Below, piece by piece: positions 11,598-12,383 of a stretch of DNA of 64,000 nucleotides. The stretch is from a phage, in the sequence record PZ386975.1. The stretch is one strand, 5' to 3'. The first letter of the stretch is position 1. The number at the start of each line of letters is the position of its first letter. The notes below the pieces were generated by a model, which saw only the letters and a list, made by a program, of their open reading frames with translations, was not told the origin of the DNA and did not search any database. The translations under genes were made by a program, and so were the position numbers.

Positions 11598-12383
11598 ATG
11601 GGTATTGTAAAAATCATCAATGGTGATATCTTTGCAGCATTTGATAAAGGTAAGTTTGACGTCATTGGTCACGGTTGCAACTGTATGAATTTAATGGGTG
11701 CAGGTATCGCTGACAAGATTTCTAAACTTTACCCAAAAGCATATGAGACTGATACAGAAGTTTATCTATATGCAGGCGGTATAGGCCACAAACCCTGTGA
11801 AAATTTACTGGGTAATTTCTCCGTAGCACGTTTAAAACAAGGTCGTATAGCTAACCTTTACACTCAGCTTAAGACTGGTAAAGATGCCAGATACAGTGCT
11901 TTAGAGTCATCTTTGAAACAGCTTAACAGATACTGTGAAGTCAACCAGTTGAAGAAGGTTGGTCTACCTATGATTGGTGCAGGTATCGGTGGGCTAGACC
12001 CTCAAGCCGTCACAGTTATCATTAATCAGGTGATGAAGAGTGTAGATGTGTATCTTTATGTCTACGAAGGAGAGATGTACCACAAGTTACGCTCAGGTTG
12101 GAAGAACTACTGTGAACCAGAATACTTTGCAGGTGTAGTAGTGTTCACTAATGATGCAGTTACCCTCTTCAGACGAAGAAAAGGTAAGATACATCAAAGT
12201 AACCCTCCGGTTGAAAAGATGTCTCTAAGTAACGCTCTAGTTACCCACCTGTCGAAGAGCAGTCACAGGATTGCAGTAACATTTGGCAGTGATGCAGATG
12301 CTTACATCTATGCAAGAACTGATGAGGATATCGAGACGGTTTTCTCTTCACCAGAGCTTACCTTCTTAGACGCAAAGAACTAA
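11598..12383 (+). CDS. macro-domain-like (ADP-ribose-binding/processing) protein
   Basis: VIGHGCNCMNLMGAGIADKI and VGLPMIGAGIGGLDP resemble the two glycine-rich macro-domain motifs. Confidence 0.5.
   Translation: MGIVKIINGDIFAAFDKGKFDVIGHGCNCMNLMGAGIADKISKLYPKAYETDTEVYLYAGGIGHKPCENLLGNFSVARLKQGRIANLYTQLKTGKDARYSALESSLKQLNRYCEVNQLKKVGLPMIGAGIGGLDPQAVTVIINQVMKSVDVYLYVYEGEMYHKLRSGWKNYCEPEYFAGVVVFTNDAVTLFRRRKGKIHQSNPPVEKMSLSNALVTHLSKSSHRIAVTFGSDADAYIYARTDEDIETVFSSPELTFLDAKN

Follow-up and report, generated by a model that had tools for sequence, protein, structure and literature searches.

A two-domain macro protein of a Felix O1-like phage belongs to the Adpp/Tk.4 family and may act on ADP-ribose-1''-phosphate

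Whether a phage macro-domain gene that shares an early block with an NAD+ pathway also acts with that pathway is the question raised by PZ386975.1, which comes from a Felix O1-like phage (genus Felixounavirus). The stretch analyzed, referred to as the window, is 64,000 nt long. An original prediction from the letters alone had placed a macro-domain-like protein downstream of a Prs/NAMPT pair and proposed a toolkit acting on ADP-ribose or NAD+-derived signals, either by supplying substrate or by degrading defense signaling molecules. The features that define the locus are as follows.

1385..2281, + strand: Adps (Prs-like) gene of NARP1, a possible partner (Pfam Pribosyltran and Pribosyl_synth, related-phage annotation, Bas63 g79).
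2328..4109, + strand: Namat (NAMPT-like) gene of NARP1, a possible partner (Pfam NAPRTase at 120.7 bits and NAMPT_N, related phages, Bas63).
10050..10067, + strand: terminator-like hairpin at the upstream end of the macro unit, separating it from NARP1, rIIA, and rIIB.
11598..12383, + strand: complete ORF, a macro domain followed by a C-terminal orphan domain (Pfam, PHROG, AlphaFold2, gene order versus Bas63 g95).
12413..12454, + strand: terminator-like hairpin, a 17-pair stem followed by a T run, ending the macro unit.

The Prs/NAMPT pair is genuine as judged by Pfam, and the end of its NAMPT-like gene lies 7.5 kb, or ∼15 genes, upstream of the macro start codon. Other Felixounaviruses have the two ORFs in this order as well, and by gene order the pair corresponds to NARP1, the experimentally defined NAD+ reconstitution pathway encoded by g79-g80 (Adps and Namat) of Felixounavirus Bas63, in which it was first found (bioRxiv 10.1101/2024.02.11.579819). 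Counting genes from this pair, the macro ORF is probably the counterpart of Bas63 g95, a “putative phosphatase.” The macro gene shares its strand and long block with NARP1 yet lies outside the NARP1 operon, given its distance of ∼15 genes and its position as the last gene of a unit of its own (10091..12383), which is bracketed by the two terminator-like hairpins.

Several other features of this region were observed. A small Cys-rich ORF at 11361-11597 (+ strand, 66-78 aa, CxxC...CxxC, zinc-ribbon-like) has a stop codon that directly abuts the macro start (TAA-ATG), which suggests translational coupling of the two genes. Just past the macro-gene hairpin, at 12457-12636, a 23-34-nt unit (consensus roughly TCATTTT.AA.TGTGCAGGTA) is present in three to four copies; its core pattern occurs six times in the window versus 1.8 expected, and three of these six lie within 12457-12636. 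The 2 kb around the macro gene (11000-13000) matched 241 phage records, ∼200 of them at 90-95% identity, and an indel of ∼180 bp falls somewhere inside this query in related phages. A 231-aa ORF at 8868-9563 (+ strand) gave no Pfam match; a similarly placed gene in Erwinia phage vEam_PM_21 is annotated “polynucleotide kinase,” metagenomic-contig genes in the same position show weak HAD_PNKP matches, and this member of the early block is a possible phosphatase or kinase of the RNA-repair type. An uncertain 113-aa ORF at about 17468-17809 (+ strand) also gave no Pfam match.

The macro ORF starts with ATG and encodes 261 aa plus a stop. Residues 25-141 matched the Pfam Macro profile PF01661 with 32.3 bits (cut-off 22, E = 1e-7), and the protein matched PHROG 335, “phosphatase,” with an E value of 1.8e-112. 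The copies in related phages are labeled “putative phosphatase,” “macro domain-containing protein,” or “O-acetyl-ADP-ribose deacetylase” in GenBank, and the gene is kept at 32-98% identity among Ounavirinae-type phages and contigs. Both of the glycine-rich motifs claimed at the outset were found. The parts of the ORF are as follows.

11598..12068, + strand: macro domain, residues 1-157, Poa1p/TARG1 class, Adpp/Tk.4 family (Pfam, Foldseek, Adpp HMM, tree).
11670..11684, + strand: HGCNC motif, residues 25-29 (alignment).
11694..11711, + strand: first glycine-rich loop, MGAGIA, residues 33-38 (sequence, alignment).
11853..11867, + strand: NLYTQ motif, residues 86-90 (alignment; unchanged in 31 of 31 relatives).
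11973..11993, + strand: second glycine-rich loop, IGAGIGG, residues 126-132 (sequence, alignment).
12069..12380, + strand: C-terminal beta-rich orphan domain, residues 158-261 (model, profile search).

An AlphaFold2 model of the protein, for which 31 homologues served as input, was confident along its whole length (pLDDT 92.1, pTM 0.89) and contained two domains, a macro fold at residues 1-157 and a small, largely beta-stranded domain at residues 158-261. Foldseek returned human TARG1, yeast Poa1p, and the DarG macro domains of Thermus and Mycobacterium as the best solved structures, with E values of 1e-10 to 2e-9; the probability was 1.00 to TARG1, Poa1p, and DarG, and TM-scores normalized to target were 0.77-0.87. 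The profile search and structure prediction that had been proposed as checks, together with the Adpp HMM described below, therefore bore out the macro-domain call. The ORF encodes a genuine two-domain macro protein of the phage Adpp/Tk.4 family that is predicted to be an enzyme and is probably active.

A search with a 14-sequence profile of the C-terminal domain covered 1.84 billion representative proteins. The domain was seen only fused to these macro domains, in Ounavirinae and in contigs that are unclassified but share the gene order; the other matches, two short fragments and three repetitive proteins, were judged spurious. Residues 158-261 had no match in Pfam or NCBIfam, and the net charge and pI of both domains across homologues, in which a DNA-binding signature was sought, followed no consistent pattern. 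Given that it carries no catalytic signature, the domain is probably a binding or stabilizing module.

Two activities have been reported for phage macro proteins to which this one can be compared. Adpp, a Poa1p-like macro protein characterized in Vibrio phage Gary (KNV71_gp137) and encoded within a subset of NARP1 operons, dephosphorylates ADPR-1''-phosphate to ADPR. The RES-domain defense aRES generates ADPR-1''P, and loss of its phosphate lets NARP1 rebuild NAD+ (bioRxiv 10.64898/2026.01.28.702374). Tk.4 (AdfM) is the single T4 gene needed for growth on cells carrying DarTG2, a DNA ADP-ribosylating toxin system unrelated to NAD+ salvage, and a clean tk.4 knockout makes T4 sensitive to DarTG2 in E. 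coli, which is genetic evidence (bioRxiv 10.1101/2025.11.20.689424). PhiKZ gp104, also called AdfM, strips DarT2-placed ADP-ribose off DNA in vitro (PMC13309987).

An Adpp HMM of 155 positions was derived from the 13 NARP1-adjacent Adpp sequences in Table S1 of bioRxiv 10.64898/2026.01.28.702374. The window protein matched positions 2-153 of this model with 106.9 bits, T4 Tk.4 scored 104.5, and the DarG-like PhiKZ gp104 scored 41. Such a full-length match does not discriminate between the two reported functions, because Tk.4 is not NARP1-associated and scores nearly as high. In BLASTP against Adpp proteins, E values were 1e-13 to 1e-18 at 27-29% pairwise identity. The identity to T4 Tk.4, the closest characterized relative, was 35% over the entire macro domain (E = 7e-16); the HGCNC and NLYTQ motifs are the same in both proteins, and the second glycine-rich loop (P.IGAGIG) is nearly so. 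Yeast Poa1p (PDB 6LFQ) was matched by Foldseek with an E value of 9e-10 and a TM-score of 0.77 normalized to target, and it has the H-x-C-N-C motif in common with the window protein at ∼22% identity; unlike the phage protein, it is a eukaryotic enzyme that clears a tRNA-splicing by-product.

In a neighbor-joining tree (100 bootstraps), the window protein, its two-domain relatives, T4 Tk.4, and all Adpp sequences formed one clade with 94% bootstrap support, within which the two-domain proteins formed a 99% group. TARG1, PhiKZ gp104, and DarG fell outside this clade. The Adpp sequences split into three separate groups, deep nodes had 2-45% support, and the tree gave no specific grouping of the window protein with either Adpp or Tk.4. 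Judged by sequence, “Adpp” and T4 “AdfM” (Tk.4) constitute one family, PhiKZ “AdfM” (gp104) belongs to a different, DarG-like family with a catalytic Lys, one name being shared by the two families, and the reported functions of Adpp and Tk.4 are not separable for the window protein. The two-domain protein is thus an added member of a recently described phage family and no new kind of system. The single-domain Tk.4 is 155 aa long as opposed to 261 aa here, and the extra ∼105-residue C-terminal domain is found in no Adpp.

Inspection of the active site yielded a distinct pattern of conserved and lost residues. H25 was unchanged in 31 of 31 aligned relatives and aligns with Poa1p H23 and Adpp H24, the H24A substitution of which abolishes the anti-aRES activity of the operon and is listed in Table S4 (bioRxiv 10.64898/2026.01.28.702374). 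A Gln, Q90 in the window protein, occupies the position of TARG1 K84 and of the catalytic Lys of DarG, where Poa1p has Ser. This combination of His and Gln is common to the window protein, T4 Tk.4 (at L002 298-765), and every Adpp. DarG and PhiKZ gp104, by contrast, have the catalytic Lys (FPTK motif) and are without the His in the alignment, and N28 of the window protein aligns with N23 of the PhiKZ protein. Of the Poa1p residues mutated in deposited structures, H23, S30, and F152, which correspond to H25, L32, and G131, only H23 is kept. The verified phosphatase Adpp is also without Poa1p S30 and F152; therefore, neither residue is required for phosphatase activity.

Human TARG1 (OARD1) was the top match both by structure and in a PDB sequence search and shares the glycine loops, and some GenBank orthologues carry the deacetylase label. 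Macro domains are often promiscuous toward 1''-linked substrates. These points are in keeping with reversal of protein or RNA ADP-ribosylation, for instance by toxins, or with deacetylation of O-acetyl-ADP-ribose as by TARG1/MacroD. Both members of the TARG1 dyad, K84 and D125, are missing, however, with Q90 and G131 at the aligned positions, and no macro-family member is known with such activity. A Pfam scan of ten neighboring ORFs, Adps and Namat among them, revealed no ADP-ribosyltransferase, sirtuin, or Tpt1-like domain; the absence of ADP-ribosyltransferase and sirtuin matches in the eight neighbors besides Adps and Namat argues further against these activities, which are improbable for this protein.

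A stronger alternative is that the protein is an orphan antitoxin resembling Tk.4 and AdfM, which would strip DarT2-placed ADP-ribose from thymidines of the phage DNA and so restore replication, and in which the C-terminal domain could help to bind DNA or the toxin. The close relationship to Tk.4, with its shared motifs, and the DarTG2 sensitivity of the tk.4 knockout speak for this role, which is a realistic possibility. The two phages have the same E. coli host range, and the gene is early and non-essential in both. The top NCBIfam and PADLOC matches of the window protein were to DarG, with 47.5 and 48 bits, respectively, and DarG itself has an N-terminal macro domain followed by an extra C-terminal domain. 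That score is, however, far under the NCBIfam DarG cut-off of 250 and no better than the 35-49 bits of three Adpp proteins, whereas PhiKZ gp104 reached 138. Membership of the DarG family itself was rejected on this comparison and on the absence of the catalytic Lys; the window protein is also without the DarT-binding domain and without an adjacent DarT, and the likeness to DarG and PhiKZ gp104 comprises the macro fold, the weak model match, and the equivalent Asn. The replacement of the catalytic Lys by Q90 and the lack in DarG of the His found here count against de-ADP-ribosylation of DNA, as does the restriction of the T4 evidence to genetics.

The distribution of the family bears on the same issue. 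Macro-family members occur in 2851 phage records versus 1431 for Adps, about twice as many, and among Escherichia phages in 999 records versus 178. The family is therefore widespread among phages without NARP1, which favors the antitoxin role, and most of its members work without NARP1, including that of T4, which from the record counts and general knowledge of its genome we take to be without Adps.

The reading that we favor, tentatively and at somewhat less than even odds, is that the macro protein dephosphorylates ADPR-1''P and thereby supplies the NARP1 encoded by the same phage; removal of ADP-ribose from DNA ranks second, is nearly as likely, and can coexist with phosphatase activity in one protein, so that both may hold. 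Residues 1-157 would cleave a group on the 1'' carbon of ADP-ribose, the likeliest substrate being ADP-ribose-1''-phosphate from RES-type NAD+ phosphorylases such as the aRES defense. Removal of the phosphate would yield free ADP-ribose, which, together with nicotinamide, Adps and Namat would then turn into NAD+. Felix O1-like phages would in this way carry a dispersed “NARP1-AP” pathway. Phosphatase activity is preferred because the genome contains NARP1 of an experimentally verified type, the active-site signature agrees with that of a biochemically verified phosphatase, and a fused relative suggests phosphate esters as substrates.

This fused relative, P0027 (L008 1250-2269), joins a macro domain of the family (∼35% identity) to a cREC_REC domain (30.8 bits, cut-off 27). 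The fusion to a cyclic-phosphate-processing domain points to phosphorylated ADPR metabolites as substrates and suggests that ADPR cyclic phosphate may be converted to ADPR in two steps. ADPR-cyclic-phosphate is a breakdown product of ADPR-PP (bioRxiv 10.1101/2024.02.11.579819), and a phosphatase could also help to recycle such by-products.

NARP1 and the macro gene occur in the same genome both here and in the Ounavirinae-type relatives. The gene order Namat, rIIA, rIIB, then macro was found in every two-domain relative examined, including three metagenomic contigs (32-41% identity) and an Erwinia phage (Kolesnikvirus), but this synteny is confined to one subfamily and therefore counts as a single evolutionary event. 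Klebsiella phage Menlow (Ackermannviridae; L010, NC_047901.1) carries NARP1 at 76493-78996 and a macro gene of the family (H84) at 146575-146904, ∼68 kb apart, and the dispersed pairing of NARP1 with a macro gene is therefore not limited to Ounavirinae. Bas63 g95 was dispensable on laboratory hosts and on 12 defense systems of the Gao et al. panel, SIR2-HerA included (PhageMaP; bioRxiv 10.1101/2024.10.10.617714); the absence of a cost on SIR2-HerA hosts is what an enzyme of use against RES-type cleavage alone would predict. No published data on Felix O1-like phages versus DarTG2 or aRES were found, and the aRES phage panel did not include Bas63.

A comparison inside the genus gave 98.5% identity between the macro protein and the copy in phage pEP20, whereas Adps is 79% identical to that of pEP20 and 98.7% identical to that of Salmonella phage FSL SP-010, which indicates that NARP1 and macro alleles reassort. 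This reassortment counts against coupling to NARP1, as do the separate transcription unit, the record counts, the Tk.4 phenotype against DarTG2, a tree that groups the protein with neither Adpp nor Tk.4, and the loss of Poa1p S30 and F152. The proposal that a wider toolkit supplies substrate to the Prs/NAMPT pair gained a precedent in Adpp and NARP1 (bioRxiv 10.64898/2026.01.28.702374) and agrees with the score of 106.9 bits in the Adpp HMM, while the functional link to the NAD+ module that it implies stays putative in view of the location, distribution, and T4 genetics just listed.

The other half of that toolkit, degradation of an ADP-ribose-derived immune signal, such as His-ADPR or gcADPR of Thoeris systems, is very improbable, and nothing in the analysis supports it. 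The anti-Thoeris proteins Tad3-Tad7 instead bind the defense protein and block its active site, and other anti-Thoeris proteins are sponges. His-ADPR is a 1''-linked ADPR conjugate bound by host macro domains, and in a published survey soluble ADPr derivatives are the predicted targets of phage macro domains (PMC9503650), but no macro-family member is known to degrade such signals, and a contextual link is absent at the macro locus.

A dual-purpose enzyme, in which one active site would serve both ADPR-1''P dephosphorylation and de-ADP-ribosylation of DarT2-modified DNA without the catalytic Lys, is rather unlikely. The lineage-specific C-terminal domain would in that case direct the enzyme to DNA, to the toxin, or to the NARP1 enzymes, and the “Adpp” and T4 “AdfM” reports would describe two activities of one family.

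The distance between the macro gene and NARP1 has a consequence for the reported distribution of Adpp. In the Adpp survey, only two genes on each side of NARP1 were scanned, and Escherichia and Salmonella phages are absent from its table (bioRxiv 10.64898/2026.01.28.702374). The macro gene of Felix O1-like phages would therefore have escaped it, and at ∼15 genes from the pair the window gene falls outside the operational definition of Adpp, that is, within two genes of Adps or Namat. If the g95-type protein dephosphorylates ADPR-1''P, a complete NARP1-AP in Felix O1-like phages was overlooked by an operon-based survey, and the share of NARP1 phages reported to have an associated phosphatase, 15%, is too low. 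Judged by gene order, Bas63, where NARP1 was discovered, probably has the orthologue of the macro gene as g95. The overlap of the names Adpp and AdfM in two 2025-2026 preprints affects annotation and makes dual specificity worth direct testing. Felix O1-like phages are used in biocontrol of Salmonella and E. coli, where the defenses that they evade help to predict host range. The main value of the finding lies in the NARP1-AP that was probably missed in Bas63-like phages, the Adpp/AdfM name overlap, and an orphan C-terminal domain.
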